Shown here: piece by piece, positions 10,804 through 60,420 of the stretch
Numbering within the stretch: the first letter of the stretch is position 1
How the letters are laid out: the number at the start of each line of letters is the position of its first letter
Made by a program: the position numbers and the translations under genes
DNA from: Amphiscolops sp. MND2022
Lineage: Eukaryota
Length of the DNA: 64,000 nucleotides
Direction of reading: 5' to 3'
NCBI GenBank assembly: GCA_964187785.1
Contig: OZ076409.1
Coordinates: 24,306,001-24,370,000, forward strand
Notes under the pieces: generated by a model
What the model was told of the DNA's origin: nothing
What the model saw: the letters and a program-made list of their open reading frames with translations, nothing else
Databases searched by the model: none

Positions 10804-10838
10804 TTCTTCTCTTCTTGATTGAACTCAGTTCACAAAGT

Positions 10839-18287: not shown

Positions 18288-18562
18288 ACAAAAACACTAC
18301 TTGGATTTTTTGCAGTCTATAACTAATTAGCTATTACTGTACTAAATGACGTTCAACAATATAGGTGTATATAAAGTCAAAACTATATTCTCTGATTCTG
18401 GAGATGTTATTTTGGAATCTAGGAAAACTCGTCAATAACACTAAAGCGGAAGACTCATCGCAAGGTACAGCAAATTTTCCATGCCAAGTATATGTGGAAG
18501 GCCAAGGTCAAACTGCCACTTTTCATAACCTGAAATACTTTAGACAGAGAGTTGTGTAAATA
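18288..18562 (+). repeat. Copy of 17037-17309 (host flank plus the first ~70 bp of the 5' LTR) inside element 3
   Basis: Near-identical ~275-bp direct repeat; ORFs 17109-17306 and 18365-18559 translate almost identically. Confidence 0.9.
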
Positions 18563-20144: not shown

Positions 20145-22707
20145 TGTCGCACGCATGGATAGATTTTACTATTTACTATTTCCTTTTTGTTCCCTTTTCC
20201 TTTCAAGGGGCTGTTCAGTTGTTATCAGTATTAGTCAGTTCAGCTTATGTAGCGTAGTGCAAATTACTTTCAGGTGGCTATTCTATTATTGATTGTAAAT
20301 GAGTAAGAAAGTCTCAAAGCTTACTCTGTGCAATAATAGAAAGGAAGTGCCTTGCGTGTACGTGCGAACAAAGGGAGTTGCGTGAATAAGTGCAAGGCAG
20401 TGTATGTAAATGAGTTATCTGAAAAGCGGAAAAGTATAGAAAGGAAATATGTTGAATTATATTACGTGAACGGACAATGGTACTAAGTAAAAATTTCTAG
20501 GCATCTCAGTGTCTATTCCATCTTTAGTTAAATCCAGCAGCGAAATAACAATTTACTTTACTTCAGCAGTAGATTGGAAGGATTTATTTCGACTTCGAGC
20601 AAAATAGCTTTATAAAATACATCAGAAACGATTAATATATATCAGAAAATTCGTAATAAAATTTACAGACTAAATTGTGAGCTTTTACACTTTCATAATG
20701 AAAATGCTTTATGATTAGCTCCAAATGAGAAATGGTTTTAGCCGGTGATAATTTAAACCAGCGAGTTTTAGTTTTTTTAAAGTCACTGCTCTGTTGGGTA
20801 GAGAGACAGCATTAGGACTTTGTATAAGACACAAACTCACTGGGTAGATGAGGTGAAATGATTTTGTAAGTACTAGTGTAACGCCAACCATTTATTTAGT
20901 ATTTTTCTAAGATATACTTTGAACAACCACTGAGTAAAATCAGTGGAACTTTTCTAAGATATATTTTAAACAACCACTGAGTAGAATCAGTGGAATTTTT
21001 CTAAGATATAAGTTAAACAACCACTGAGTAGAATCAATGGAATTTTTGTAAGTTATATTTTAAACGACCACTGAGTAGAATCAGTGGAATTTTTCTAAGA
21101 TATAATTTAAACAGCCACTGGGTAGAATCAGTGGAATTTTTCTAAGATATAATTTAAACAACCACTGAGCAGAATCAGTGGAATTTTTCTACGATATAAT
21201 TTAAACAACCACTGAGTAGAATCAGTGGAATTTTTTTGAGATATATTTTAAGCAATCACTGAGTAGAATCAGTTAAATTTTTCGAAGATGTAATTTAAAC
21301 AACCACTGAGTAGAATCAGTCGAATTTTTCTAAGATATAATTTAAACAACCACTGAGTAGAATCAGTGGAATTTTTCCAAAACATAATTTAAACAACCAC
21401 TGAGTAGAATCAGTGGAACTTTTCTAAGATATAATTTAAACAACCACTGAGTAGAATCAGTGGAATTCTCTAAAATATAATTTAAACAACCACTGAGTAG
21501 AATCAGTGGAACTTTTCTAAGATATAATTCAAACAACCACTGAGTAGATACAGTGGAATTTTTCTAAGATATAATTTAAACAACCATTGAGTAGAATCAG
21601 TGGAAGTTTTCTAAGATATAATTTAAACAACCACTGAGTAGAATCAGTGGAAATTTTCTAAGATATAATTTAAACAACCACTGAGTAGAATCAGTAGAAT
21701 TTTTCTAAGATATAATTCAAACAACCACTGAGTAGAATCAGTGAAATTTTACTAAGATAGAATTCAGTTAGGAAGGGGAGAATCAGAAATCTCCACAAAA
21801 AGAAACTAAGTTATTTTTTCACTCACCAGACCGGGGACTGTTGTCGGATTGAGGTGAATTCTCTAAGATAGAAAATTCAAGAAAGACGGATGTGACTTCG
21901 CAAATTTGAGAGCCAAAGCAAAAAAGGGGATGAAAGTAAGATAGAAGTTTTTAGTCCAAGGGGGAAATAATTCAAGAATTTAGCGGAGAGAAGATAAGTA
22001 GAGTTGGAGCAAGTTGAAGGGAAGAGAAGTAAAAGTGAGAAAGGGAGAGAGCTTTTTAGGTGTTGAAGCTCTGCCGGTTGGAGGGAAGAATGAAGCTCCA
22101 GCTTGTGCACGCCGTATAAAAACAGTTCAGCACTTCTACCGAAGTGCTTCATTGGCCTGTTTTTCGTTCAGCCAGTCAGAGCTTAGCATTAGATTTCGGA
22201 TCTCCGCGGTAAATAATAGAATTTTTCGTTTCTGTAATCCCGCGGTAGAAGAACCTTTTTTATCCCATTATTCTGCGGCCTTTTTATGAGTTTCAGCTGC
22301 CGCCCTACTTTAATAGTTATTTATCTTCAGCTTCCTCCTTCTCCAGGTTAGTTCAATTTCCTGCTTTGTTTATGCAGGTGTTTTTTAATCATAAACTACT
22401 CTGTAGCTCAAAGGAAATTGATTAGCTTTGTATTTTTGCAGGGGAATTTTTGATTAGAAACGGCTCTGAAGCCCTGGGTTGATAGTTGAGCTTTTTATTA
22501 AATCAGGTGTTTATAATCATAAACTGCGCGGTAGCACACAGAGAATTGATTAGCTTTGTATTTTTGCAGGGGAATTTTTGATTAGGAACGGAAGAGTATC
22601 CCTGGGATGTTTGTAGAGCTTTTTATTAAATCAGGTGTTTTTTGTTGAGCACTTTATTGTTGCAGTTGCATTTGTATTATTCATTAAGCGTTAGTCATAA
22701 CGCGACA
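20145..22707 (-). repeat. 3' LTR of element 4 (2563 bp)
   Basis: Direct repeat of 37208-39814, with an extra ~128-bp internal duplication at 22375-22631. Confidence 0.95.
20900..21760. repeat. 47-bp tandem array with palindromic core, 18 copies
   Basis: Unit aacaaCCACTGAgtagaaTCAGTGGaatttttctaagatataattta. Confidence 0.95.
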
Positions 22708-22814
22708 GCTCACCCCCCTGACAAAGAGAAAAGAGAATGCGGTATCTGGGGTAGGTCAGGAATGAAAATGGGGCCTCTTTAGCACTTGGGATTTTAAAGG
22801 GGGCTTCATTAAAT

Positions 22815-23804
22815 TTAATTGGAATTGTTGGAGTTGTTGTTTAAAAAGGCTTCCCTGAAGTTGACCAATAGTTTTGTGTGAGGGATGAAATCTTCTCGCA
22901 TGAGGTTAGGAAGAGTGTAGGTGCCGGCGTGGGTGTCGCCTTGGTTGTTCTTGTCAGAGTTGTTTGGGAAGTAGGTAGACCACTTGTTGTTTTTGTCTTT
23001 TTGATCTATGATGGAGATTTCTAATTGTCGGTCGAAAGGCCATGTTCGAGGGAGGGTGAAGTCGCTAAGATGGAGCTCACAGCAAATGGAGGAGTGGGTT
23101 CCCCAAAAGAGGTTTATCCCATATGGAAATAGTCTAAGGGATGTTTTGCAGCCTGCTAGGTGAGTGGTATAGATGGGGCTGGTGAAGCTACATTTGAAGT
23201 TGCTTAGTGGTTCATTCGGGAAGGTTTTTGCTTTTCGGTATAGCGTAGAAAATGCGGGAATCTGCCACAGGAAGGGTTCATTGTTTCTCCCATCGATGAA
23301 ATTAGTATTTCTGAGGAGGGAGCATTGGTATTTTATGGTTGCTTGTAAGTTGGATATTGTGGTCTCTAGTTGTAGACATCTAGTCTTTGCTTCTTCTGCC
23401 GAATTGTAGAGTTGTTTCACTTTGCCATCAATGTTCGTTTTAGGCTCTAAGGTTTCTGTTAATGAAAATGATTTCCAAAGGACCGGGGTTTCTAGTAGTT
23501 TTTCGTTTTGGCAACTTGATATGGTTGAGGTTTCTAATTCTGATATCCATTTGCTCAATCTTTCTATTCCCTCGAGAGTCTCTTGTTCTTCCGGGACATC
23601 TGGTTTCGATATGGGTGGCCAGTCGGGTGTAGTAATACGGGAAGAAGGATTATTTTTTGGGATAAAGGGCGTAGCATTAGGGTTTAGCCTATGATTCATT
23701 GTGCGGATATTGATCTTAGGGGGACAGTTAGTCTTTGTCCTTTGAGTGCAGGGTTCTCTATAGTGTATTCTTGTCTCTTGTTGTCCCAGAAAACGATGTT
23801 CCAT
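22815..23804 (-). CDS. Accessory protein: PAM2 motif + coiled coil + TRAF-type MATH domain (likely start 23699)
   Basis: LNPNATPFIP fits the PAM2 consensus. A heptad stretch (VKQLYNSAEEAKTRCLQLETTISNLQ) follows. FLWQIP.F, FTSPIYT...GCK.SLRLFPYG, GTHSSI, WPFDRQLEISIIDQ and FIPHTKL are colinear with TRAF-C motifs. Confidence 0.85.
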   Translation of the reverse strand: MEHRFLGQQETRIHYREPCTQRTKTNCPPKINIRTMNHRLNPNATPFIPKNNPSSRITTPDWPPISKPDVPEEQETLEGIERLSKWISELETSTISSCQNEKLLETPVLWKSFSLTETLEPKTNIDGKVKQLYNSAEEAKTRCLQLETTISNLQATIKYQCSLLRNTNFIDGRNNEPFLWQIPAFSTLYRKAKTFPNEPLSNFKCSFTSPIYTTHLAGCKTSLRLFPYGINLFWGTHSSICCELHLSDFTLPRTWPFDRQLEISIIDQKDKNNKWSTYFPNNSDKNNQGDTHAGTYTLPNLMREDFIPHTKLLVNFREAFLNNNSNNSN

Positions 23805-23903
23805 AATGAGAATTGGGGAAGTAGGGTATACTTTAAATCTGCATTGAACCTAGGCCTTTTAACATATCTGGCCCTTTTTGTATAGTATTCCCTTTTGTGT
23901 TGT

Positions 23904-24278
23904 TTATTTAGTGGTGCCTGGTCCGCTATCTCGTTGTTCCATTGATGGTGGTGTTTTCTGGGGAGGATTCTTTTTTATATTTTTTCCGCCGAATCGGGGT
24001 GGATGTTGGGTTGATGGTAAAGGTGCTACCTCTTCTGTGAACGACAGCGGGAAGGGGGGTCGCTCTGATGTAGTTGATGAGGGCGTTGTTGTATGTGCCC
24101 TTGGGGGTGGAGAAGGAACAGTTGAGTCTGGTGGGTCTAGGAGGAAGTTGATTGTTGTAGGGGATACTGGGGACAGCAGGTCTGATGGCGATAAGGGCTC
24201 AATTTCTAAGTCATCCTCTAAGTTAGGGTTAGGGTTGTCGTCGTCCAGGTTTGGTAGGTCGAAAATTGAGTCTAATTG
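23904..24278 (-). CDS. Putative spliced, acidic and Pro/Ser/Thr-rich accessory exon (124 aa, no 5' ATG)
   Basis: The open frame QLDSIFDLPNLDDDNP...GPGTTK* begins immediately after the acceptor-like TACTACTTTTAG. Confidence 0.45.
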   Translation of the reverse strand, partial: QLDSIFDLPNLDDDNPNPNLEDDLEIEPLSPSDLLSPVSPTTINFLLDPPDSTVPSPPPRAHTTTPSSTTSERPPFPLSFTEEVAPLPSTQHPPRFGGKNIKKNPPQKTPPSMEQRDSGPGTTK

Positions 24279-24314
24279 CTAAAAGTAGTATAATCAATGA
24301 GAAAGGTTTAACTT

Positions 24315-26453
24315 TTAAATTGGAGCTACGAAGCTCTGTACAGAGGGGTATAGTGATTCCTCTTTTTGTTTCAGATTTTGAAGTTCTACCGTTTTTATTT
24401 CGTCTTCCGTTTTTGTTCTTTCTTCAATGCTATCCTCGAGAGGGGCCCGCGCGGTGAATACGGAAGTTAAAACGGAGGTAAAGAAAAGATTGTACGAAGC
24501 ACAGAGCAAGGTTTTAGTGAAGCTCAGGGTATTACCAGTAAAGTGACGAAGTTCGAAATAGCGGAAGACTAGGACCGTGTTTTCTCTAACGAATTTAATA
24601 AAAAGAAAGGCGCCAAAATACGCGCCGCAGAGTTCGAGGACATACATATACTTCCGAAAGTTTCTAGGAATTGATTTTTGAAGTAGTCGGGTGATATCAT
24701 ACCGTCAACGTAAATATCGGTACGGGGTGCGTAATACGCAAATGATTCGGGTCCGCTATGGGCCATTGAAGGGATGATGAGTTCTCGTGAAAAGTTCTGG
24801 AGGGCATTTCGTGAAGCTGCGCTGATGAGGATGTTATCCCAAAATTCCGAGAGTTGTTCCGGCGTGTACATTCCTGCGTCTTGTGATCCAGGAAAGGATC
24901 TGGTAATCAGTGGTTGGATGTCCTTGGGTCCGGTGATAGCAGGTCGGTCACGATGTTCGGGTGAAGGAGTGAGGGTAAACCAGGAATCTTTGTCTTCCAT
25001 GTCCAGTTGGAAGAGGTTCTTAATGCGATCGCTGCAATTGTGCACGTTCGCATTAGGATAAGTCTGTCGGGTGATGGGGTCCACGAAGGCGACCACTCCT
25101 TTGTAGAAGATGGGTATGCGGTCGTAGCATTGGTTCATCGTGTGAAGAGTGGGATTCTGGGCAGTGGTAGAGCCATGCTAGGCTACCATCTGTGTTCAGG
25201 AACATTGAGCGATTTCCCGTGAGCATGTATCCGGCAAGTCGTGGGTTTTCCATGGAGAGCATCAAGATGGTGATGATTTGTGTTCGTTCTTGTTCACATT
25301 GAGCTTTCAATAGCTGGATTTCTGAAGCTTCAAGTAAGCGGGTGCTCTCAAAAAAGAGATAATCTAATTTTGTCCCTTGGTGGAGCTCGTAATCCACGTT
25401 AAGATAATGTGGTGTATTAGGGTTAGAGTCGCCGGGTCCTCTGAAGAGGTGGAGTCGGCCACTACCAGAACCATCGTCAGGTGAGTAATATTGAAGTTTA
25501 GATGTCTCGCCCATGGAGATGCCAAGTCTTCTGCCGGAGGTCATGTCAAAGCCACCAAGTTGGATTGAAACGTACAGGGATTCGTAGTTGGTCGAGTATA
25601 CATCGTCGGGTTTGTTGCAGTACTTTTGTGGTCTGTTGTAGACCTCGAAAAAAATTTTGGTAGTGGAATCGTTGCCGCTGACAATATAGTAGTTAGATCC
25701 GTGTTTGATCATGTTCACCATTTCTTTTCTGTGTACTGCAAGCACGCAATCATCAGGTTCTGCCCATGTGTATGCGTAGGGGTCCAGTGACGTCGTTTCA
25801 CAACCAAGTTGCTCCAAACGACAGGGAAGGATCATTTGAAATGGTGTGAGGACCTTTCCATCTCGGGTTTTGACCGATAACTCAGCGTCTTGAATGTGAG
25901 ATTCGAAAGTTTCGCGTTTGATCCATCCTCCTGTTTTGCACTCATTGCGGGTATCAGGGTCGCGTACCCCGTCCCAACTTTTTCCGTGTTTGGCGTTTCT
26001 CGTCTGTACTTGTTTCACTCCTTTCTTAAATCTAAGGAGTTGTCCATGGATTATGACTTCTTTTCCTTTACCCATTGCATTACAGGTTTCGGGGGACAAG
26101 GAAAGATCGCTGGTGATTCCGTTGTGTAGAATTGATATACTGGAGTGGTCGTGATGACCACAATGCCATTCTTCACTCTGATGTTTCACACGGCACATTG
26201 TGGCGTTGATAGTGCAGCGAAAGTGTTTAGTGTATAACGTTACGCTAGCACGACTTACTTCTAAGTTTTCTGGGGCCACATTGCATTGTTCTACTTGATT
26301 CAATGCGTAGAGCTTATTTTGGGTCATTTCGCCGCAGTCGAAATGAGTTACTCGCAATTTTTTAGCAACGCTAGCGAGGTTTGGCGTAGGGCGTTGTGAG
26401 ATCTCAACGGGCGCGTAATAGGCGCATAAAACGAGTAGGAAAAATAATTTCAT
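24315..26453 (-). pseudogene. Envelope glycoprotein, class III / chuvirus (Monjiviricetes) G-like, ~710 aa, two frameshifts (~25150, ~24645)
   Basis: Signal peptide MKLFFLLVLCAYYA; HFDC, HCGHHDHSS and CYDRIPIFY..FVDPITR motifs; many Cys; sequons (NAT, NDS, NRS, NCS); C-terminal hydrophobic anchor; located 3' of pol. Confidence 0.8.
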
Positions 26454-26512
26454 TTTTGAAATTCTGCAGTCTACGCAAAATCAATCAGGTGAAATCTTTT
26501 ATTCAAAGGTGT

Positions 26513-26789
26513 GGATCCGTTGTAAGGCCGTAAGAAGGCAAGCCGTAATATCAAACCGACAGCTTAGCTGGTACAACACTAAGCGGAGGTTAAAATTTTA
26601 TAGTAGTAACCTCACTACTGTTCACACGTACCTAAGAAAAAGAGAAGTCTGTTATTCTTTTAGTTGCAGTTAAGGTAATGGATCCTGGAGTAAAGCCGTA
26701 AAAAGGCAAGCCGTAATATCCAACCGGCAGCTTAGCGAGCACTGCGCTAAGCGGAGTCTAAAATTTTATAGTAGTAACCTCAATACTAT
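26513..26789 (-). ncRNA. Two copies (26513-26619, 26680-26789) of a ~108-nt structured element upstream of env
   Basis: Conserved hairpins with divergent loops; substitutions between copies are tolerated as G-U pairs on the minus strand. Confidence 0.55.
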
Positions 26790-26850
26790 TAGAAAAAGAG
26801 TGCCTATGAAGAGTATTTGAAAGAGACTAACTTCAACCATTTGTGAAGAT

Positions 26851-27195
26851 TCAGCTGTAATTGTCACTGATGAATTGCAGACTGGGAGAGGGTTTGTTTT
26901 TTCTTCTCGAGTCGATGAAGTCAATGAGTTTGTTGAGAAGGAAGAGTGTAAGAGGGTGAATGTGATTTAAGTATGCTATCTGTCTGTATTCCTTGAGGGA
27001 TTGAGCGAGAGCGGCAGCTTCTTGTGAGTCGGTGTCTACCGGGATGAGCCAGTGACCCGGTTGGTGTGGTCGAAGATTATCGATTTCTCTTTGGATCACA
27101 GGAGCGCTGTCCTTCCAAGCGATAGAGAGAATTTCTAAGAGGGTGTTCGTTTCAGGGTGGCGCCAGAGGAATTTGAGTTGAATCCTAAACATCAT
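26851..27195 (-). CDS. Orphan accessory ORF, 114 aa
   Basis: ATG-initiated; its start overlaps the stop of the preceding ORF. No recognised motif. Confidence 0.5.
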   Translation of the reverse strand: MMFRIQLKFLWRHPETNTLLEILSIAWKDSAPVIQREIDNLRPHQPGHWLIPVDTDSQEAAALAQSLKEYRQIAYLNHIHPLTLFLLNKLIDFIDSRRKNKPSPSLQFISDNYS

Positions 27196-27580
27196 AGGTG
27201 TCGACTAGGCTGTGAAGGTATTTGATTCTAACTTCTTCTTCGAAGGGGTTGGAGGTGAGAGTGATGTCCATAAAATAAACCAAGTCGTCGAAAGCCTTGT
27301 CTTTGAGGACGGCGGGGTGTTGGAGTATGTATTGCTTGAACGAAAGGAATTAGTAGGCGTATTCCTTGGACCCGAAGTGAATAGGGAAGAGGACTAGAGC
27401 TTCTTTGTCTTCTGGCGTGAGTATACGAACTTGAATCGCAGAGGTAGTGATCTCGTAGAAGATTGACTGTATTTCGTATTGGCCCTTGAGTTGTATGGGC
27501 GTCCAAGGAACAGGAGGTTGAAATTGGGTGTGGAAGTAGTAATTATTTCCGCGGAATACAGCTACTGCGGGAGAGGACAT
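27185..27580 (-). pseudogene. Orphan accessory ORF (~131 aa) with one in-frame stop at 27350
   Basis: MSSPAVAVFRGNNYY...EYAY*FLSFKQY...VDTYDV*. TATA-like TATATAA lies ~50 bp upstream. Confidence 0.5.
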
Positions 27581-28042
27581 CAAATGACTGATTTGGCTCT
27601 AGTGAAGACTTCGGTAGGGGTGTTGTTATATAGCAAGCTCTCCAATAGTGGGTAGATAGGTGATGCTGGCACACACGTGTAGGTTTCACTTTCTTCTTCT
27701 GCTATTGCTTAGGCTTGTATGATGATGTTCTGCGTTGAGGGTTCCTTCTGAATATCTGTAATTTGTGAGAGACGGTTGCCGATCTTGAAGGTTATGATCA
27801 TCTGTGTGTGATTTTGCCTCGTGATTTGTGTTCATCAAACATAGCAAATCTGAGAATGGAATCATCAGTTATTTTCATTGCGTTTGAGAACAGTCATATA
27901 ATAAGAATTATTAACACGACTTCATAGGAGTTCGTGGTTGGTTACCGAGAAATGAAGAGCAGATAATATATTGAATCTCGGAATACTAGGTAAGCAAGTA
28001 TAGACGTAATAGTTTTAAATCAATATATTTTTTTAGGTTTAC

Positions 28043-28663
28043 ATGACTTTATCAGTAGCTACTTTGCATTTAGTAATGAGCAGCAATAACACTAATAATC
28101 TTGCCCCTAGTGGGTCGTCGGGCGTTACGGCCTCTACTACATCTACTGTCGTCGTCTCTTCTTCGTCTGCTGCTGTTATGTCTTCCTCAGTAGTGTCTGT
28201 GGCCGGGCCTAGTCGCCCGGACACATCAGTACCAGTGAGTTCTGCCGCTCCGCCTGTTAGTCGTCTGGCCGGTAGGCTAATACCGGGTCATCTCAACAAC
28301 TACGACAGAGAGACATTTATGGATCTGTATGATTGGGGCGATGTCAGGCGACTAGAGGGATGGGTGGAGACTAATAGAGACACAAGGGGGGTTCGGGGTT
28401 ACATGGTTGTCCGGGCCCCCATCTCGGATGCTTTTGCATCGTTTTTGTTGCAGTTGTATGAGCGACCCTGGGAGTCAAGACTTCTGGCGGGGCAGGGGGA
28501 AGTTCTCCTGTTCCAGCTCAGGAGTTATATCCTGGGGTATTCGCGTTTAACTACTTATCAGAGGGGCCAGTTTCGTCGACTGTGGCCCGCCTGGACCAAC
28601 GAGGAGAGGCGTAGCCAGCTAGAGAAGTTGGCTAGTTTGGGGGGCTTTGTAGAGCTGGAGTAG
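28043..28663 (+). CDS. Antisense accessory ORF, 206 aa (Ser/Val-rich N-terminus, globular-looking C-terminus)
   Basis: Intact ORF opposite to the element sense strand, preceded by a GTAAGC...TTTTAG mini-intron (27990-28036) and TATAATA at ~27897. Confidence 0.65.
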   Translation: MTLSVATLHLVMSSNNTNNLAPSGSSGVTASTTSTVVVSSSSAAVMSSSVVSVAGPSRPDTSVPVSSAAPPVSRLAGRLIPGHLNNYDRETFMDLYDWGDVRRLEGWVETNRDTRGVRGYMVVRAPISDAFASFLLQLYERPWESRLLAGQGEVLLFQLRSYILGYSRLTTYQRGQFRRLWPAWTNEERRSQLEKLASLGGFVELE

Positions 28664-28813
28664 GCCCGTATGGCTACTCCACTCAACCTGTTTTTACTTG
28701 CTTCTGTCTTCGTCTGCTATTTCATAAAGTATACTACGGGGTTGCACAAAGGATAACCAAATATAATTATAATATAGATATACAATAGTCTTGCATCATG
28801 AAATTGCGGCCGG

Positions 28814-29224
28814 CTAGGAGCTAGGTGAGGAGATAGTGGAGCAGCAGAATAGGTCCTTTTGGGTATTAGGTAGAGAAGGTTGTAGGTCAGGTATTAGGGT
28901 AGGCATGTAGGATAGGAGTTCTTCTAGGATAGAGTCGTGGTGTGTGACTGCATAGTATGCGAGGTGTTGATATAAAAGAACAAAGGTCTTAGATTCTGGG
29001 CGTATAGGTATGTTTGATTTTCGGGGCGTTGGTTGTTTATTATAGCTCGGGTCTGGGTCTTTAGAGTAGAAGCAAATCCTAACTAGCTTGTTTGTGTAGG
29101 TCCAGTAGATTTTTGTGATTGTTACATTGAGAATGCCTAAGGACTGAAGTTCTCGTGGAACTTGCCAGGGCAAATTTAGATATACTTTATGGCATGGCAT
29201 GGTAAGGTTATTCTTTGTAACCAA
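28814..29224 (-). CDS. Orphan accessory ORF after integrase, ~128-136 aa
   Basis: Open frame directly downstream of the pol C-terminal region. No recognised motif. Confidence 0.45.
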   Translation of the reverse strand: MVTKNNLTMPCHKVYLNLPWQVPRELQSLGILNVTITKIYWTYTNKLVRICFYSKDPDPSYNKQPTPRKSNIPIRPESKTFVLLYQHLAYYAVTHHDSILEELLSYMPTLIPDLQPSLPNTQKDLFCCSTISSPSS

Positions 29225-29348
29225 TTCGAGTCCTTTCGCGGAGGACGGACTGTTGTGCCGGTTGATTGGGCTGTGCTCGTTGATAGCGTGGATTTCTTTC
29301 TATATGGCGGGCAACAACTCTTCTTAATTCTTGCAAAGGAGTCGGTGA

Positions 29349-32300
29349 TTAAGTTGAAGACGCCTGGTTGTTAGTTAGTCGTGCTGGAGTTGGATGACGT
29401 TGTGTCAACGTTAAAATAGGGGTTGCGGTGTCTCGAGGATGTGAGGTCGAAGGCTGATCGGGAGTCTGTGGGGTTGCCAACAACTGATTTTCTGGAGAGA
29501 TGATACCAGAGTCTGTGCTCAGTGGGGTCTGCTCGTTTTTGCGGATAAGTATTTGATCTTGTTGGGTCCGAACTGGCAATATGCAGAGATCTCCGAGTGT
29601 TTGTGCTTCTGAAACATTAAGTTGTTCAATTCTTCCTTTGACGAAATTGTTATAAAAATCTTTGTCTCCACGATGGGGAGTTGTGTATTCTTCGATAAGA
29701 GGGGGGAGTGTTTCTATCAGGTGATTTCTATGTACAGTTCGGAGATTCTCGGGATTTCGATCTTCTGTTATTTGGTAAGTTGTGTTGGTGATTCTCTTGG
29801 TAACTGTAAAGGGTCCTAATCTTAGTTGCTGAAGTTTTTGACTTTTAGAGAGATCCTTTCGATGGTTTTCTAGCAGGACCTTTTGTCCTATGTTCAGGTG
29901 GTTTCCGAGTTTAAATCTGTTTCTGTAGGCGTGTGATCGAGCTTTTTATTGTCTGCAATTTTCATATGTGGATGAGTAGATCTTTTTGAAGACTGTTTCT
30001 CTTTCCAGCAAGTTTTGTGATAGTTGTGGTCGTAATAGTCCATTTACTTGGTTTCCACTATGACGGTGTGGAAGTAGTCCGTTACAGAACTGTGATTTAC
30101 AGTTCTTGTTTTTATTCCTATATAGTCCCAGCTTCAGACTCATAGATATTTGTGGTTTGTTGCAGAACACTATCTCGTAGGGGGTCTTTCCTGTTGTGTA
30201 GTTAACGCTAGTGTTGTGGGCGAATGCAAATTTAGCGGCTAGTTGGGCCCAGTTGTTTCCTGATTCATTTAAGATGTTTCTCCAGTATCTTGCGATGTGT
30301 TGGTTTTGCGTCTCGACTTTGCAATTTGTCCAGGGTGAGTGTGCAGTTCTTGGTCGAAGAGTAATGCCAAACTCTTTCGTCCAGTTGACGAACTCAGTGT
30401 TTACAAAAGCTGTTCCTCTATCATGTATGATGGATTGCGGTATCCCATAGTGAATTATCCATTTTTCCATTGCGTTGATTGTTGATTGTGCTCCTGTGTC
30501 TTGGACCGGATATGCCATTAAATAACGCGAGAATGCGTCAATGATGAGAAGGCAGTGTGAATTTCTACGACTGGGAGGGTTGAGTGGTCCCTTGTGATCG
30601 ATATGAACTGTTCTGAATACTTGAGTTTCGATTTCACAGTCTTCCAGTGGGACTTCGTTATTTCTTCTTTGTTTGGATTTGTTAGACTGGCAGCTAACGC
30701 AGTCTTGTGTGAGGGCACAGATCCAGTCGTGCATTCCGGGCCAGTAGTAGAGTCTTTTAGCATTTAGGTAAGTTTTCTCAGCCCCCATATGGCCGCCCAG
30801 GTCGTTGTAATGTCCCATACGGAAGCAAGTTAGAAATGGAGAGAGAGGTAGGCAGATTCTCAGGTTTTCGTCTGCCGGGTCGTCAGTTGGCTCGTTGTAG
30901 CAGAGGAGATTTCCCTGTTCTTCTATAGTTAGTCGGTCAAATTCCTGAAAGTATCGCATGAGGACTTTCGAGTGTTGTAACTCTGGTGACTTTGGCGTAG
31001 GCTTGTTTCCTGTCTTCATCCATTGTCGGACCACACTGAGGACTGGGTCATTAATTTGTTCTTGTAAAATTGTTGTGACGTTTAGCTCCGCTTCTTTGGA
31101 AATCTTATCGAGTTGGCCTATGAGTTCTCGAGTTGATGTCTTTTGTTTTCCTGTAGTGGTTTTAAGGAGCTCGTAATTTTCAATTGCCTTATCATTTTCG
31201 GAGGTACATTGTTTGAGTGTCGGGGAACTCGTATTAGGCCCATAATTTGTTTCGTTCACTTCTTGACGTTCGTCATCTGCGAGGGCTTTGTCGTCTGCGT
31301 CGCTGTTAACCGAGCTGTAAGTATTTTGTGATATATCGGAGGTGCTTTCTCGCGTGCCAGATCTGATTCGTAGCTCTTCGTAATTTCTAATTTCTTTTCC
31401 GGCGTCAAAACAACTTTGCGCCGATTCAATCTTCGGCAGGTTAGGTTCCTCGTAGACATTGTTGACTGTGAAGTTATTACCGTCATTTTGTAGGTGAAGG
31501 ATTTTCCGTTCATCCCCCTTTTCGTACAATATAGGGTAGAAGTCATTCTTTGAAGTTTCGTCGTTTTCCTCGTGTTTGATTTTGTTGTGAACTTGAGTCC
31601 CGTGCTCGTCGAAGAAGTGTATGTCGTTGGGTAGGATCTTGTGGCTAAGTTGGTGTTTCTTGTGTTCTTCGATTGAGACATTTCGGCTGAGTATATCGGG
31701 GAAGGCTAAATTGCTTCCCGGCGTCCATATTATCTTTAGATTGGGAAACTTGGAAATAATCACTTGGTACCTAAAGAATCGCGGTGAAACCTGTCCTTTT
31801 TGTCCCCAGAGATAAAGAATTGGTTTATGGTCACAGTATAGGTAGATCGGGACATCCAATGATATAGTGCTCGTATGTTTGTAGTGCTGAGACTATTCCA
31901 CATAGTTCTCTATGTAGTGTGGACATCTTTTGTTCTTCTTTTGCGAAAATTCTGGAATCGAAAGAGATGATCCGTTTTCCTTCTGGAAATTGTTGTATGA
32001 GTATACATCCTGTCCCTACGTGTGACGAGTCTACGTGTATATGAAATGGGTATTTCGTTGAAGGTACTACAAGAACCGTGTCTTCGCAGATTCTCTTCTT
32101 TATTTCTTGGAAGAGGTCTTCGTGTTCTTGTTTCCAACAAAAGTTTGTATCTTTCTTGGCAGCTCGTAGAATGGTCGACTATAGACATGTAGATTCTTGA
32201 TGTAACAGCTATAAAATCCCAGAGCCCTAGAAGCTCTTTACCTCAGTTTTCGTTCTTGGCGATTTAAGATTGTGAAGATCCCTGACTCGTTTAACTACAG

Positions 32301-34728
32301 GTTGTATTCCTTCTGCTGCAATTACATGTCCCAGGAACTTGACTTTTCGCGAGAAGAATAGTGTTTTGTCGGGCGCTGCCTTGCGTCCTGCTTTCCGTAG
32401 TAGGTCATGGTATTCTTGGATCACTGTGAACATCTCTTGTTTGTTTTTGGCCTGCATTAACGTGTCGTCTATGTAGGTAATTGCGTGTTTCTTCTTGATG
32501 AGGTTTCGCCTTGGTTCGAAATGGATTGTCATCATACGGCTGAAGAAGCTGGGTAATCCTTTAAGTCCTCTGGTAAATGTATATTGTTTACCGCCAATTA
32601 TGAAGCTAGTGAGCTTCTGTGTGGGCTCGTCTAGTGGGACTTGGTGAAAAGCGCAAGAGAGATCGCTTACTGAGAATATTTTTCCGTTGATGAGCGTCAT
32701 TATGGTTTGGATTGGTTCCAAGGGCCAGGAGTAGTTTGTCAGATCAGTCACTGAATTCAGGTATCTTGCGTCTATGATCAGCTTGACGTAATCATGTTTT
32801 GGTTGTAAGATGATGAGGTTTACGAATAGAGATCCATTTCGTCGTCATCGCCCATCTCTCTTATGATGTCAGCCTCTTTGAGTTGTGTTAGTAGTTTTTC
32901 TAACTTTTCTCGTAAGTGTAGTGGTACTTTACTAGGTCTCTGTCTCTTCAGAATTGCTCCCCGTTCTAGTTTAATGTTGAATTTCTGTCTAGTTTTCCCA
33001 ACATCGAACTTGTGTTGTGAAAATACATCTCTAGCATCCATCAGTAGGTCTATGAGGAGAACAAGTTCTTCGTCTGTGAGGTCCGAGTAGCGAAAGTCGA
33101 ATTCTTTGATGTATTGAACTGCTTCTTTATTCTGATATTGAAGATAGTATTCAATGAGTCGTTCGTTGTCTTCTTTGGGCCTAAATATCTTGAATTGTTC
33201 GTCACAAGGTGGTTGGCAGGACCTTGCATCTTTAGTAAAGTCAGTTTCCAGTTCTCTGTGCTTCAAGTGAAATTCCTCTGGAAATTGTTGTATTTCATCT
33301 TCTACTGCATTTTCAGGGTCTCCTCTGGTAGTCATTGCATAGACATCTAGCTCGTTTCTGGTATAGATTCGGAGCTGCATTTCTGTGTAGGCAAAGACGT
33401 CTTGAATAATTTGCGTAACATCTTGCCATTGAAAGTCCTCTAGTTCTGAGGCTTCTCGTAACATAAAAACAGTCTTGATATTATTCAATTTGGCGTGGGC
33501 TTTTAGTGTTTTCAGCGATTGGGCTAAGATTTGTGGGTCGATTTTGTCTTTTGATTTAGCCTTAGTGATTAAGACGTATATAAATCCCCTTAGAGTTGTA
33601 TCCCAGAGGGTATTGTGTCGCCTTTTTGAGGTTTCTGTTTTGCGCAAGAGTCTTTCAATGAAGGTATATTCGTTAAAATTACTTTAGAGAAGCTTTTGGC
33701 TGGTTTTAGGTCAGCCGGAACAAAGATAGGTCAGCCGGATAGGTCAGCCGGATAGGTCAGCCGGATAGGTCAGCCGGAACAATAGAGTCTGGTCTGTTGA
33801 GTATTGTTGTAGAGTTTCCTCCTTCTATTCTGATGCAATCGTTAAGATCTTGTGAAGGGATAGTAGCGTGTAGTAAAAAGCAATCGTTGTATTCTTCATT
33901 TTCGCTTAAAATGGTGTAAGCGAGTTCGGTAGGATTCCTAATCTGATTATTTGGGATTTCTTTGTCAATGACGTCTAGCATAGAGTATCCAATAGTTCCT
34001 TTAACTAGTGTGATTGTATGGTTCTTGTTGTTTTCCATAACAATTGGCAAAGTCTTCTCAAACCGTGTACAAAGGACGTTTGTGAAGTTGAGTCCTGTAG
34101 AAACTGCCTTTCTGTTTGGAAGGAATGTAGATCCGGGAGGGAAGGAATTTTTCGCGTTTTCGAAGGCAAATTTGTAGCATCTTGTTGTTTTCGGCTCAAT
34201 GAACATGGAGTGAGGGATTTTGAATGTTAATATTTGCGAAACATAGGGGTATACTTTGTTTAGTTGAAGGCTACCATAGCAGAAGGTATTTAGAGGTCTC
34301 TTGAGCTCTATGTCGGGGAGGTCGAAATGTATTTTGTTGATCTGCTCTTGGCAGAAATTCATTCCAAGAAAGTTTTGTGTCTTCATCTCGGTGATCCAGA
34401 CTGTCAGAGGGAAGTTATGTTGGCCGTCGGAGTCATAATAGAGTCTTAATGGAATGTATCCCATCATAGGGTTGATTTGACCAGAGTTGTTACGAGTTGT
34501 GTTGTTGCTCCCGCTGAGTTCGAGGTCTTGTTGAAATTGGCAAACTTCTCTAAATGTCTTATAGTTGATGATTGAAGATGTTGCCCCAGTGTCAAGTAGA
34601 AATTCGATTTCCAAGCCACTATCTTTTTGTGAGTCTTCGGCAGCAAAATAATAAAGATTAAGATTAAATTTTAGTGGGGCACTGCTGCTACTTTTATTTT
34701 TCGGAGACCTTAGTAGTTTAAAGGACAA
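29349..34728 (-). pseudogene. Gypsy pol (PR - macrodomain - RT - RNase H - IN) with multiple frameshifts and stops
   Basis: LLDTGA; SDLSCAFHQV and YIDD; VDSS, CDHKPI and PDILSR; GGHMG...CVSC; HIDHKGP; HDRGTAF; GPF motif at ~29810. Confidence 0.93.
33362..33810 (-). other. TARG1/OARD1-like macrodomain within pol
   Basis: FIYVLITK.K.KDK....LAQSLKTLKAHAKLNNIKTVFM.R...LE.FQWQDV.QIIQDVF..T.MQLRIY parallels the TARG1 pattern YIYYLITK...LQKSLEAMKSHC...MPRIGCGLD.LQW.NV..MIEEVF..T.IKITVY. Confidence 0.8.
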
Positions 34729-34862
34729 AAATCGGCTACTGAGTTCACTGAGTAGTCAGTTTCTAAGAATTGTACTGTGTTGGATCTTCCCACGTCGTTA
34801 GTTTTTGGGAATCTTTGCTCGTAAGACTGAGTAGGGGTGTTGGGTCTTTCGTTTCTGTTTTG

Positions 34863-36166
34863 TTATTGTCTCTGAAAAACTGACTTTTTCCTTGGTGGAA
34901 AGGGTTGTATGTTGCGATTAAAAGGGTTAGGCTGGTCTCTGTTGAAGTTAAAGGGAGATCTAGCTCTCTGTGGTCCTGGAGAAATGCTTCTGGGTCTGTT
35001 AGAATTATTGGGAAAAGGTCTTCTAACCTCTTGCGAAAATCTCTGGTTACCGGAGCTGAATCTAGTATTTGTAGATCTGCGTTCTGGGTTAAAGTTTCTG
35101 TTCTGAGATCTGTCAAATCGGTTCCATGAAGGGGTTGCTTGCATGGCTCCCGCAAGTGCCAGTTGATGGGCAACCGCCATATTTTTTCGGATCTTTGAAT
35201 CGGGTAGTCTTGTCTGAAATCTTGAGCCATGCCCAGGTCCAGTTCTTTTGTTGTAATCGTTGGTGAATATTATTCTTCTCTCTGCATTCCTTCGTTTTGA
35301 ACCTTCTTGACTTCCTCATCTCTCATCTTTTTTCTGCACCAGTTAGGTGTGTGCCCATTTGTTCTGCAGTAGCTACAGAATCGAGTGGCCATTCTTCGTC
35401 CTGTAGCATTAGGGTCTACTGTTTTCTCTACTGCGTTGATAGTATTATTCATCTGTTCCTTGATTTGTAGTTTAATTCCCTTTAGGTCGTCTCGCATTTC
35501 TTGTATGAGTGGGTCTTCGTGTGACTCTCCGCCAGTTAGGGCGGTAGTTACAGTGTAGGAAAGGTCTTTGTTTATTACTGCTTGTGAAAATTGCTCCCAG
35601 GTTGCATTCGGGTGGTCCATCAGATATTCGTGTGCCTTTTCTCTCAGCTTTGGAGGTCTTAGGCCTCTCAGGGAGTAGTCAATGCACCTCTGTCTTCTTT
35701 GTTTGTCTTGAGTTGTCCTTTCAGCGTCTCTATTGTTCTTTGCGACTCCGGCTAGGTCATCTGGCCATCCTTTTCCAACTACTATTTTAATTCTGTGTAG
35801 GAAGTTCTTTATTTCTTCTCCATCTCGTCTGATGACATGTTCGGCTTCCATTCTGTGTCTAAATTTGTTTCTGCCATCTGCGAATCGTGTGATGAACCTT
35901 TCTCTGATTTCTGCCCAAGTGTTAGCGTCTGTGATGCTGGTCTCGAACCACTCCGCTGCGGGTCCTCTTAATAGTGTAGCAAAGTAGGATTTTCTTCTGA
36001 AGTTGTAGTCATCAAGTGCTGGTCCGTTGGCTGGGGTATCACCATGAGAAAACCGGAACTTCTTTTCAATGAGCTGTATAAATTGTTCAGGATCTTGATC
36101 TGGGTCGGTTCCTGTGAATTGGTCTCGGCCGAAGTCTGGATAAGCCAAGTAATTTTGCGCAGCCAT
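34863..36166 (-). pseudogene. Gypsy gag; intact to 35270, then a frameshifted Arg/Ser/Asn-rich tail
   Basis: FTG.DP.QDPEQFI, LLRGPAAEWF, W.EIRERFITRF and the CCHC knuckle CSYCRTNGHTPNWC. Confidence 0.9.
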
Positions 36167-37207
36167 TGTAAGCTGTTGAAAATATTAGAGAAAGAAAATG
36201 TAGCAACGAATAATAAATTAAAGATTCGATTAGGTAGGATACTCCAGGTCTCTGTAAATAACCACAAACGACTAAGGTAAAACACGCTCTTGCAAGAGTT
36301 CTAAAGATAATAAGAGCTAGGCAGGTCTGGCTTTGCATATACTCAATAGTATGCAAAAAAAATTTTAAGATCTCACCTCTCAGCTTAGGAGACGTTAGTC
36401 CTCCGGGTTTAATACTTCAATCCTAAAATAATAGGGGATACTTACAAATCCCGCTAACTTTAAATGATTAACAGAAAGGGCAGTTCGGGGTATACCAATC
36501 CTCCGATTTAACCAAAAAAAATGTGGAGAATACAATCGGTTTCAAAAGGTACTCAATTCGCTAGTCTAGCCTTTCAATGGCTTTTGTAGAAGTAATACAA
36601 CAAACAAACAGAGGGAGGCACTCTCGTCCTCAGGATTAAGTAGCGAGGGGCCAAGATCACTATCATGCAAACACTAGGGTACTATCACTAGAAATCTTAG
36701 AATTCTAGGTTTCCACCTTGGAATGCTACACAGGTTCCGGGACACCCACTGGGCTCATGGCCTTCAATCAGCCTCCGAAGAGACCTAGGCGGGCTTTTCC
36801 TTAATATGTGTCCGTCTGGACTTGAGTGTACATCCCAACTGTAGGTTTAGATTCAGTGTTAGAAAGCAGTTTCATTCTTGTTTTAGGACCGAATGTAGTC
36901 TAGCATTTCTGCAAAAGTAAGTTAGCTCTAACCTTTTGGGGATTGGGAGGACTAATTTGAGTAGTGCACAGTCTCTTCCTAAAGCTTTTAAGCTGGAGAG
37001 ATTCTGTTGGAGTTTTTACTAGCAATTCTATGAATTATAAAGACCAAGGAAGCCACATGTTGGGGCAGTAGGAGAAAAAAGAAAATCAGAAGTAATGTTA
37101 AGAGAAACAGGTAGTAAACCCTAACTTCTTAGAGTAGGGATTCTAACAGATAGCTCATTTATTTCTCTACTAAGAGTAAAAAGGGTGCCTCACTGGTCGC
37201 ACCAGTT

Positions 37208-39814
37208 TGTCGCACGCATGGATAGATTTTACTATTTACTATTTCCTTTTTGTTCCCTTTTCCTTTCAAGGGGCTGTTCAGTTGTTATCAGTATTAGTCA
37301 GTTCAGCTTATGTAGCGTAGTGCAAATTACTTTCAGGTGGCTATTCTATTATTGATTGTAAATGAGTAAGAAAGTCTCAAAGCTTACTCCGTGCAATACT
37401 AGAAAGGAAGTGCCTTGCGTGTACGTGCGAACAAAGGGAGTTGCGTGAATAAGTGCAAGGCAGTGTATGTAAATGAGTTATCTGAAAAACGGAAAAGTAT
37501 AGAAAGGAAAAATGTTGAATTATATCACGTGAACGGACAATAGTATTAAGTAAAATTTTCTAGGCATCTCAGTGTCTATTCCATCTTTAGTTAAATCCAG
37601 CAGCGAAATAACTATTTACTTTACTTCAGCAGTAGATTGGAAGGATTTGTTTCGACTTCGAGCAAAGTAGCTTCATAAAATACATCAGAAACCATTAATA
37701 TATATCAGAAAATTCGTAATAAAACCTACAGACTAAATTGTGAGCTTCTACACTTTCAAAATGAAATTGCTTTATGATTAGCTCCAAATGAGAAATGGTT
37801 TTAGCCGGTGATAATTTAAACCAGCGAGTTTTAAGTTTTTAAAGTCACTGCTCTGTTGGGTAGAGAGACAGCATTAGGACTTTGTATAAGACACAAACTT
37901 ACTGGGTAGATAAGGTGAAATGATTTTGTAAGTACTAGTGTAACGCCAACCATTTATTTAGTATTTTTCTAAGATATAAGTTGAACCACCACTGAGTAGA
38001 ATCAGTGGAACTTATCTAAGATATATTTTAAACAACCACTGAGTAGAATCAGTGGAATTTTTCTAAGATATTATTTAAACAACCACCGAGTAGAATCAAT
38101 GGACTTTTTCTAAGATATGTTTTAAACGACCACTGAGTAGAATCAGTGGAATTTTTCTAAGATATAATTAATTCAGCCACTGGGTAGAATCAGTGGAATT
38201 TTTCTAAGATATAATTTAAACAACCACTGAGTAGAATCAGTGGAATTTATCTAAGATATAATTTGAACAACCACTGAGTAGAATCAGTGGAATTTTTTTG
38301 AGATATATTTTAAACAATCACTGATTAGAATCAGTGAAATTTTTCTAAGATATAATTTAAACAACCACTGAGTAGAATCAGTGGAACTTTTCTAAGATAT
38401 AATTTAAACAACCACTGAGTAGGATCAATGGAATTTTTCTAAGATATATTTTAAACGACCACTGAGTAGAATCATTGGAATTTTTCTAAGATATAATTTA
38501 AACAGCCACTGAGTAGAATCAGTAGAATTTTTGTAAAATATATTATAAACAACCACTGAGTAGAATCAGTGGAATTTTTCTAAGATATAATTTAAACAAC
38601 CACTGAGTAGAATCAGTGGAATTTTTTTAGATAAATTTTAAACAACCACTGAGTAGAATCAGTGAAAGTTTTCTAAGATATAATTTAAACAACCACTGTG
38701 TAGAATCAGTGGACTTTTTCTAAGATATAATTTAAACAACCACTGAGTAGAATCAGTGGAATTTTTCTAAAATATAATTTAAACAACCACTGAGTAGAAT
38801 CAGTGGAATTTTTCTAAGATATAATTTAAACAACCACTGAGTAGAATCAGTGGAATTTTTCTAAGATATAATTTAAACAACCACTGAGTAGAATCAGTGG
38901 AATTTTTCTAAGATATAATTTAAACAATCACTGAGTAGAATCAGTTGAGTTTTTCTAAGATATATTTTAAACAACCACTGAGTAGAATCAGTGAAATTTT
39001 ACTAAGATAGAATTTAGTTAGAAAGGGGAGAATCAGAAATCTCCACAAAAAGAAACTAAGTTGTTTTTTCACTCACCAGACCAGGGACTGTTCTCGGATT
39101 GAGGTGAATTCTCTAAGATAGAAAATTCAAGAAAGACGGATGTGACTTCGCAAATTTGAGAGCCAAATCAAAAAAGGGGATGAAAGTAAGAGAAAGTAAG
39201 AGAGAAAGTAATTTAGCGGAGAGAAGATAAGTAGAGTTGGAGCAAGTTGAAGGGAAGAGAAGTAGAAGTGAGAAAGGGAGAGAGCTTTTTAGGTGTTGAA
39301 GCTCTGCCGGTTGGAGGGAAGAATGAAGCTCCAGCTTGTGCACGCCGTATAAAAACAGTTCAGCACTTCTGCCGAAGTGCTTCATTGGCCTGTTTTTCGT
39401 TCAGCCAATCAGAGCTTACCATTAGATTTCGGATCTCCGCGGTAATTAATAGATTTTTTTCGTTTGTGCAATCCCGCGGTAGAAGAAACTTCTTTTATCC
39501 CATTATTCTGCGGCCTTTTTATGAGTTTCAGCTGCCGCCCTACTTTATTAGTTATTTATCTTCAGCTTCCTCCTTCTCCAGGTTAGTTCAATTTCCTGCT
39601 TTGTTTATGCAGGTGTTTTTTAATCATAAACTACTCTGTAGCTCAAAGGAAATTGATTAGCTTTGTATTTTTGCAGGGGAATTTTTGATTAGAAACGGCT
39701 CTGAAGCCCTGGGATGATAGTTGAGCTTTTTATTAAATCAGGTGTTTTTTGTTGAGCACTATATTGTTGCAGTTGCATTTGTATTATTGATTAAGCGTTA
39801 GTCATAACGCGACA
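37208..39814 (-). repeat. 5' LTR of element 4 (2607 bp)
   Basis: Followed on minus, after 3 nt, by the PBS at 37188-37204. Confidence 0.95.
37960..39010. repeat. 47-bp tandem array with palindromic core, 22 copies
   Basis: Same unit as 20900-21760. Confidence 0.95.
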
Positions 39815-60330: not shown

Positions 60331-60420
60331 CTTTGTCGTGATCTTTTGCAAGAGAATGAATCAAGGTAGCAAGGAAAGTGTTAAATCAAATAGATCGAGG
60401 AGCAACTTCTTCGACAGCGT

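Follow-up and report, generated by a model that had tools for sequence, protein, structure and literature searches.

The window analysed here, a stretch of 64,000 nucleotides from Amphiscolops sp. MND2022 (assembly GCA_964187785.1, contig OZ076409.1, positions 24,306,001 to 24,370,000 of the forward strand), was found to carry at positions 20145–39814 a single Ty3/Gypsy-type long terminal repeat (LTR) element of 19,670 bp, read on the minus strand. This unit is probably one decayed member of an endogenous, retrovirus-like Ty3/Gypsy family that was active recently, exists in many copies and carries conserved extra genes. Besides gag, pol and env it holds six further coding units, namely a TRAF-like open reading frame (ORF) and five small ORFs of no known family (ORF3, an antisense ORF, ORF5, ORF6 and ORF8), and a macrodomain segment lies inside pol. 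The extra coding units are kept as a fixed set under purifying selection in this lineage. The first-pass annotation of this DNA had proposed an env-bearing Ty3/Gypsy element with real accessory genes, and had named the absence of the accessory block from other copies, or its neutral evolution, as grounds for abandoning the proposal. The block recurs on different contigs, with its order and spacing kept, at no fewer than 13 further loci, the ratio of non-synonymous to synonymous change (dN/dS) is that of purifying selection, and the genes are shared with other copies and families, not private to the window copy.

Matches to the element in the host genome were numerous. A 2-kb pol query matched 15 other full-length loci at 86–96% identity and 22 at 82% (40 scored of 449 candidates). 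The TRAF block was present nearly full length at 17 other loci (84–96% identity), the env block at 39 loci (88–97%) and the block at 26.8–29.35 kb at 13 loci (80–97%), and the positions of the matches to these three blocks agreed with those of the pol matches. The analysis of individual copies covered seven of them (the window copy and six others), together with three partial family samples. Five of the six fetched copies were full length (18.8–19.4 kb) and the sixth was without most of its 5′ LTR; all five full-length copies had 4-bp duplications of their own and LTR pairs that were 98.7–100% identical, and the window copy, with LTRs 97.0–97.4% identical when the tandem array is excluded, was the oldest among the copies examined.

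Across the seven copies, gag (489–490 amino acids, aa) was open in three, pol (one 1846-aa frame) in one and env (723 aa from stop to stop) in two. ORF3 (159–169 aa) and ORF6 (110–117 aa) were open in all seven, the antisense ORF (202–227 aa) in six, with 137 aa in the seventh, and ORF5 (130–141 aa), ORF8 (191–193 aa) and the TRAF-like ORF (335–364 aa) in five each, the TRAF-like ORF having an altered C-terminus in two copies. Gag, pol and env were each open in at least one of the seven copies, as in the errantiviruses in the broad sense, and all three were open together in no single copy. The first-pass annotation had called the window copy decayed, and this is evident in most of its genes: gag carries a single frame change (near 35288), pol has four or more frame changes together with stops, and env changes frame twice; two stops fall within the ORF5 frame, ORF8 changes frame once, the last ~28 residues of the TRAF-like ORF are altered so that its C-terminus is lost, and the macro segment is cut by frame changes and by a private 13-bp microsatellite. 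ORF3, ORF6 and the antisense ORF are open.

The same gene set extends beyond the family of the window copy. A sister family (at least 22 loci; DNA identity 82% in pol and 88% in env) carries ORF3, the antisense ORF, ORF5, ORF6, env, ORF8 and TRAF, arranged as in the window copy, at 42–94% amino acid identity, all seven units being open except the antisense ORF, which is split across two frames. A distant family has the same seven units in the same order, all open, at 33–74% amino acid identity (integrase tail 68%, env 74%, accessory proteins 33–51%). At the level of the superfamily, TRAF-mep_MATH was above the cut-off in 150 scored of 440 candidates, many of them in frames of recurring size (384, 257 and 342–349 aa), and the macro segment of the distant family matched 150 scored of 913 candidates, including 30–33% identical versions within open frames of ~1853 aa. 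About 63 of the 150 scored macro matches lay in frames of at least 1,800 aa, and at least 10 were situated 11.6–12 kb upstream of a 384-aa TRAF frame on the same strand. Two of the four fetched MATH loci displayed an env tail, an ORF8 homologue and a helical-plus-MATH ORF, in that order; the other two had MATH only and may be host genes. The pairing of macro and TRAF across the superfamily indicates that a macrodomain in pol together with env, ORF8 and TRAF predates the window family.

Selection was estimated by Nei–Gojobori counts on a MAFFT alignment of the seven internal regions, with C8–C13, C1b–C7 and WIN–C5 as the deep pairs. In these pairs dN/dS was 0.09–0.10 for gag, 0.07–0.12 for pol, 0.09–0.32 for env, 0.14–0.20 for the antisense ORF, 0.04–0.29 for ORF5, 0.08–0.09 for ORF6, 0.30–0.51 for ORF3 and 0.32–0.47 for the TRAF-like ORF, and it was 0.09–0.11 for ORF8 in two of the pairs. 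The macro segment gave 0.05–0.12 (0.09–0.12 in the deep pairs), and the sense mirror frame opposite the antisense ORF gave 0.27–0.47, above the antisense frame itself. Shallow copy pairs presented values nearer 0.25–0.55, as would be expected had some of their differences arisen through decay once the copies were inserted. In comparison with the sister family, the proportions of non-synonymous (pN) and synonymous (pS) differences were 0.031 and 0.401 for env, 0.046 and 0.449 for ORF5, 0.095 and 0.483 for ORF3, 0.126 and 0.744 for ORF6, 0.142 and 0.696 for ORF8, 0.239 and 0.694 for the TRAF-like ORF and 0.419 and 0.874 for the C-terminal domain of the antisense ORF, respectively.

The LTR-bounded, duplication-flanked unit of 19.7 kb described in the first-pass annotation was recovered by direct-repeat search and by BLAST of the two ends. 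Both LTRs start with TGTCGC and end with GCGACA. In the sense of the element, the 5′ LTR lies at 37208–39814 (minus strand, 2607 bp, TG...CA termini) and the 3′ LTR at 20145–22706 (minus strand, ~2562 bp), the former being assigned as 5′ because the minus strand carries every long ORF that has a retroviral domain. The 4-bp target-site duplication GGGC is present on the left at 20141–20144 and on the right at 39815–39818. The primer-binding site (37187–37204, minus strand), three bases inward of the 5′ LTR, comprises 18 nt complementary to the 3′ end of tRNA-Met(CAT) plus CCA; the matching 15-nt tRNA end occurs at five genomic sites outside an element context, and all three that were fetched are tRNA-Met(CAT) genes. 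A G-rich polypurine tract (22707–22719, minus strand) adjoins the 3′ LTR and is identical in the five other full-length copies. TG...CA ends, a short target duplication, a tRNA primer site and a polypurine tract are all present, as in Ty3/Gypsy LTR retroelements (Metaviridae). Each LTR also holds a 47-bp tandem array, with 22.4 copies in the 5′ LTR (37963–39016) and 18.4 copies in the 3′ LTR (20901–21764). The copy number of this array varies between the two LTRs and from copy to copy, and the unit contains a short palindrome or inverted repeat, CCACTGA...TCAGTGG. The repeat could be a candidate binding site for a regulator such as ORF8.

The core genes are those of a Ty3/Gypsy element with an envelope, and Pfam recovers the gag, pol, glycoprotein and TRAF-domain ORFs of the first-pass annotation, the glycoprotein in two pieces and the last as MATH/TRAF-C. 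The gag gene (34713–36181, minus strand) encodes Retrotrans_gag with one CCHC knuckle, and pol (29211–34755, minus strand) encodes protease, a macro-like domain, reverse transcriptase (RT), RNase H and integrase. The Pfam order is Retrotrans_gag, aspartic protease, RVT_1, RNase H and the integrase zinc finger, core and C-terminal SH3, so that the Metaviridae order of protease (PR), RT, RNase H and integrase (IN) is found along one 1846-aa frame in the copy with open pol. In sequence searches of solved structures the closest RT was that of Ty3 (E 7e-31; Ty3 Gag-Pol, E 3e-30), and the integrase was matched by foamy-virus and Ty3 integrases at ~5e-23.

The env gene (24318–26480, minus strand) belongs to the viral fusion glycoprotein family PF24664 (Monjiviricetes_fusion), which hits the window copy as two separate segments, at E 1e-11 and E 5.5e-12, and reaches E 9e-22 on the C-terminal half of env in another copy. 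The intact protein has 714 aa, with a signal peptide, a single membrane span near residues 611–637 and 15–16 Cys, and no R-x-K/R-R (furin) site was present in any of the three families. At an E-value of 1e-5 or lower there were 208 homologue clusters; each of the 120 listed bears PF24664, and none of these has a name. The sequence search of solved structures returned no relative of env. The cytoplasmic tail contains, at residues 673–679 (window ~24400–24460), a P-x-E-x-S-x-E motif that is invariant across the three families in a tail that is otherwise variable. We take this motif to resemble short TRAF-binding motifs, a likeness that would connect env with the TRAF-like protein or with host TRAFs. 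Between ORF6 and env a 101-bp stretch is duplicated at a distance of 168 bp (26522–26622 and 26690–26790), and alignment gaps show that copies differ by a 168-bp block that is present or absent in this interval.

The macrodomain reported in the first-pass annotation proved to be real, with the correction that it does not lie in the accessory block at 22.8–29.2 kb: it is situated in pol, between protease and RT, at ~33354–33855 (minus strand), in three pieces in the window copy. A 974-aa pol frame of another copy matched human OARD1/TARG1/C6orf130 at E 3e-9 in the sequence search of solved structures, a 272-aa macro piece at E 4.9e-10 and a three-family profile at E 5.4e-12, the latter over ~88 residues covering chain positions 60–145 of 146; all five solved-structure matches of the segment were human OARD1 constructs. 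A MacroD-type motif scan of the element was blank, and it misled because the domain is of the TARG1 type. The segment is present in all seven copies, and it is 90% and 67% identical in the sister and distant families, respectively. A 13-bp microsatellite of 4.2 units (33725–33778) interrupts it in the window copy only. Alignment with TARG1 shows that the Lys of 'ITK' is kept, and the full TARG1-type set of catalytic Lys and Asp with a glycine-rich phosphate loop was not found; these are the catalytic and phosphate-loop roles that we presume for TARG1. Binding of ADP-ribose by the segment is plausible from its sequence, and the loss of the TARG1-aligned glycine loop makes a hydrolase activity doubtful.

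The TRAF-like ORF (22818–23699 from its Met, minus strand) encodes an N-terminal PAM2-like motif, a helical region and a C-terminal MATH/TRAF-C domain (MATH_2 PF22486, E 5.5e-12; PF21355, E 1.1e-7). Its best solved relatives were TRAF5, TRAF4, TRAF1 and TRAF2, at 5e-7 to 3e-4. No RING or TRAF zinc-finger family was found in it at E up to 0.1 or 1, and the protein is consequently classed as TRAF-like and RING-less and not as a canonical TRAF. Homologues with 58–66% identity begin M-N/S-x-x-L-N-P-x-A-x-P-F-x-P, and the Pfam PAM2 model scored 13.2–16.6 bits at residues 2–16 in six of the eight TRAF-like proteins; it found no match in the distant family or in the 384-aa family. An exon for the MLLE domain of poly(A)-binding protein (PABP) is present in the host genome. 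The best MATH matches without adjacent env or ORF8 were at G000:C3:90865567-90868881 and G000:C2:79075784-79079110, which may be host TRAF genes. These candidates are ~29% identical to the TRAF-C of the element, so that no recent capture is evident.

Four to five orphan ORFs on both strands had been noted in the first-pass annotation, and five were found. ORF3 (28817–29299, minus strand, 161 aa) shares sequence with the end of pol, read in a different frame. The antisense ORF (28037–28660, plus strand, 208 aa) has a Ser/Thr-rich N-terminus and a conserved C-terminal domain of ~125 aa. ORF5 (27188–27610, minus strand) has ~131 aa from its Met, ORF6 (26854–27204, minus strand) has 117 aa, with an ATG that overlaps the ORF5 stop, and ORF8 (23699–24278, minus strand) has 193 aa when whole, with an acidic disordered N-terminus, a basic helix and a small conserved beta domain. 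ORF3, ORF6 and the antisense ORF matched nothing in the sequence search of solved structures, and the antisense ORF and ORF8 had no usable Protein Atlas match.

For ORF5, which has no signal peptide, a profile search of 1.84 billion cluster representatives retrieved only 14 proteins at E up to 0.001, mostly of 124–156 aa with a few longer and none with a meaningful Pfam family, and 103 matches were present in the host genome. Its structural model (pLDDT 80.8) consists of five strands followed by four helices, and no convincing match to it was obtained with Foldseek against PDB (best E 0.28), in BFVD (best E 0.1) or in a VIA-wide comparison (best Z 3.9). A herpesvirus gL-like identity was considered for ORF5 and set aside, the recurring rows being too weak (probability 0.69, TMq 0.42; Z 3.2). 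The model of ORF8 (pLDDT 59) is disordered to about residue 118 and ordered over the last ~75 residues; the VIA-wide best Z was 3.9, and many chromo/Tudor-like small barrels appeared at Z 2.9–3.5, a resemblance of the model that may serve as a lead only.

The junctions between these genes are themselves conserved. ORF8 has 16 homologue clusters, the more distant members of which start with their own Met; in the clade of the window element it lacks a Met. Its frame opens directly behind a stretch rich in pyrimidines that ends in TTTAG; this holds for four sequences drawn from three families, and in three of them the acceptor-like stretch reads TACTTTTAG. Each of the four also has the stop of ORF8 and the start of TRAF sharing the bases ATGA, and ORF6 starts four bases ahead of the ORF5 stop (ATGTTTAA) in four of five sequences, ORF5 running on in the fifth. 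One ORF8 homologue reads on as a single protein through the N-terminus of TRAF with its PAM2-like motif, which indicates that the two proteins can exist fused. An in-frame splice of env codons 1–65 to ORF8 through GTAAGT was also considered and found to be unsupported, the site being weak in the distant family.

Several observations weigh against reading the element as a recently active retrovirus-like lineage with functional accessory genes. None of the seven copies has every gene open. The constraint on ORF3 and on the TRAF-like ORF is only moderate, and the dN/dS of ORF8 reached 0.80 in the WIN–C5 pair, on 9 changes. No Pfam macro family matched in any frame, even at E<=10, and in the alignment with TARG1 the 'GCG' loop falls on ASE or GKE and the aligned Asp is replaced by Glu. 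The PAM2 scores are all below the Pfam cut-off of 20 bits, and the motif is degenerate or absent in two of the eight proteins. Splicing and reinitiation would follow from the junction sequences; no splice donor scoring at least 7/9 was conserved in the leader of the seven copies, and the sole candidate donor near the start of env scores weakly in the distant family. The glycoprotein may be of class III, of the gB/chuvirus type, an assignment that draws on the Pfam name, on sequence features and on one preprint, which reports that the model of a chuvirus glycoprotein belongs to class III and that its nearest structure is herpesvirus gB (10.64898/2026.08.30.748148).

A life cycle can be proposed for the element, for the most part in conditional terms. 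It was inserted by integrase, with a 4-bp duplication of its own, and it primes on tRNA-Met; the PF24664 env would let particles pass between cells. ORF8 would regulate in the nucleus and be translated from a spliced mRNA, on which termination-reinitiation would also yield the TRAF-like protein. This protein would enter host TRAF signalling as a dominant-negative adaptor or a decoy and, within this clade, would also be anchored to poly(A)-binding protein through the PAM2-like motif at its N-terminus. The macrodomain would bind, and less likely remove, ADP-ribose on host or viral targets. The three pathways named in the first-pass annotation (ADP-ribosylation, innate signalling and mRNA control) do have sequence correlates in the TARG1-like macrodomain, the RING-less TRAF-like protein and the PAM2-like motif, respectively. 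Counter-defence roles, infectivity and expression of the element are putative.

The accessory proteins may instead serve the element's own life cycle and not counter-defence, with the TRAF-C protein as an adaptor for the Env tail or for a host trafficking or ubiquitin factor, the macro segment as a structural spacer in Pol and ORF5 and ORF6 as virion or assembly proteins. This explanation is considered rather unlikely. The macro segment no longer has the glycine loop, MATH domains serve generally as modules for peptide binding, ORF5 folds confidently and matches nothing known, and the invariant Env tail motif, presumably like TRAF-binding motifs, would give an adaptor a partner. No direct counter-argument was found, and what speaks against it is that the TRAF-like and macro domains of other viruses have been tied to host signalling and ADP-ribosylation in the accounts of PMC3352826 and PMC7232374.

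That the element is an ordinary intracellular LTR retrotransposon, with extra ORFs that are neutral passengers (captured host fragments or chance frames), is judged very improbable. Most genes of the window copy are broken, five ORFs are without a known family, and the strong skew in strand composition can hold frames open by chance. Nevertheless, synonymous change exceeds non-synonymous change in all units, within and between families, the gene order is kept and the frames are open (bar the antisense ORF of the sister family) at only 33–51% amino acid identity, and ORF5 recurs both in the host genome and among the cluster representatives; selection and conservation across families thus contradict neutral passage. 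A composite of a plain Gypsy element with an inserted element or host genes, or an assembly chimera, is scarcely credible. In its favour are the unusual length and the abundance of mobile DNA in the region (two BEL/Pao elements and an older piece of integrase). This origin is contradicted by the multi-locus order and the per-copy duplications: no fewer than 13 loci elsewhere, on different contigs, repeat the order and spacing, all five of the other full-length copies are flanked by duplications of their own, and neither an internal LTR nor a second duplication was seen.

An endogenous retrovirus-like Ty3/Gypsy lineage with conserved extra genes is hence the preferred reading. A broader interpretation is offered tentatively, as one that may well prove too far-reaching: a large complex retrovirus lineage of Metaviridae type, still or very recently active, with an ancestral toolkit that would include a Pol-fused, host-derived TARG1-like macrodomain, a reinitiated RING-less TRAF decoy behind a nuclear ORF8, an antisense gene and coupled ORF5 and ORF6 of no known fold. 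Under this interpretation, accessory complexity would have arisen independently outside Retroviridae, and its targets would be poly(A)-binding protein, ADP-ribosylation and signalling through TRAFs.

The remainder of the window contains other mobile and repeated DNA. A BEL/Pao element at 4426–10824 (minus strand) has an unbroken 2133-aa gag-pol frame with the domains DUF1759, RVT_1, Peptidase_A17, integrase and DUF5641, and a second one at 53925–60360 (minus strand) has a gag-pol broken into several frames with DUF1759, Peptidase_A17, integrase and DUF5641. The insertion is surrounded by older repeated DNA (18458–19633 and 40465–40926), with a 74-bp repeat, 93% identical, on both sides of it (18492–18565 and 40856–40929) and a weak integrase zinc-finger fragment just upstream. 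At 60880–61500 (minus strand) a frame of 207 aa matches the CTLH domain weakly (E 7e-4, below the cut-off) and is possibly a host exon.

Complex retroviruses (deltaretroviruses, lentiviruses and foamy viruses) have small regulatory and accessory ORFs around env, an antisense gene and overlapping frames. The layout of the window element is similar, including a Met-less frame behind an acceptor-like site; it is not a member of Retroviridae, however: the closest solved RT is that of Ty3, and the accessory proteins resemble none of theirs. Among Ty3/gypsy elements, env carriers with gF-type and HSV/gB-type envelopes are described as widespread across Metazoa (Chary & Hayashi, eLife 2026, PMC13524379). 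The window element shares with these errantiviruses in the broad sense an LTR-bounded gag-pol-env of Ty3/gypsy kind, multiple copies, young age and an env of viral type, as set out in PMC13524379; it differs in that the account given there is of three ORFs only, against six further conserved coding units and a Pol macrodomain here. The words 'TRAF', 'MATH', 'macro', 'accessory' and 'antisense' do not occur in the main text of PMC13524379.

The closest precedent found in print is Burro of planarians, giant Gypsy-like elements described with MATH_TRAF_C and a mononegavirus-like env (Arkhipova & Yushenova 2019, PMC6431247). The extra domains of Burro, which in that description include BIR, BCL2-like, SUMO-like and dUTPase domains, are thought to interfere with host apoptosis or ubiquitin pathways, and the MATH domain is a separate accessory ORF in one species (PMC6431247). 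Burro exceeds 30 kb according to the same report, compared with 19–19.7 kb in the window lineage, and its gag, extra domains and env are given as fused in one polyprotein of ~4,900–5,100 aa ahead of PR (PMC6431247). The window element, in contrast, has separate gag and pol, env downstream of pol and TRAF last, an arrangement that sets it outside Burro. Its TARG1-like macrodomain occupies the place of the dUTPase as mapped for Burro in PMC6431247, and neither BIR nor BCL2 was found in Pfam scans of the window element.

Other viral systems offer partial likenesses. The macrodomains of positive-strand RNA viruses are likewise embedded in a replicase polyprotein, as presented in PMC7232374 and PMC7729036. 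The macro segment differs from them in being host-type and TARG1-like rather than MacroD-like, in belonging to a reverse-transcribing element and in its altered loop residues, and no published report of a macrodomain in the Pol of an LTR element was found. ORF111L of the iridovirus ISKNV, a large DNA virus of fish, is described as a viral TRAF-domain protein that engages host death and immune adaptors (PMC3352826), and it is likened here to the TRAF-like protein on that description and not on sequence. A mosquito Pao element is reported to have captured a chuvirus glycoprotein (PMC7642597, PMC10084718); it resembles the window element as an LTR element with a glycoprotein of Monjiviricetes kind, the carrier there being BEL/Pao and the host an insect, and no mention of accessory genes was found for it. 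The account in PMC10084718 gives no clear case of a Gypsy capture of a chuvirus glycoprotein. The first-pass annotation suggested an undescribed lineage, and no published description of this gene set was found, supplementary tables aside; the lack of precedent was overstated in view of Burro.

Accessory-gene complexity is usually seen as a hallmark of some vertebrate retroviruses, and Gypsy elements with an env are described as three-gene elements. Here, a whole superfamily of elements retains, under selection throughout, a Pol macrodomain together with TRAF-like and antisense genes and several others of no known fold. The macrodomain and the TRAF-like protein are candidates for how a reverse-transcribing element may handle ADP-ribosylation- and TRAF-based defences in a non-model animal, and five protein families without known relatives are offered for structural and functional work. 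The occurrence of viral macrodomains is extended from the replicases of RNA viruses to a reverse-transcriptase polyprotein.

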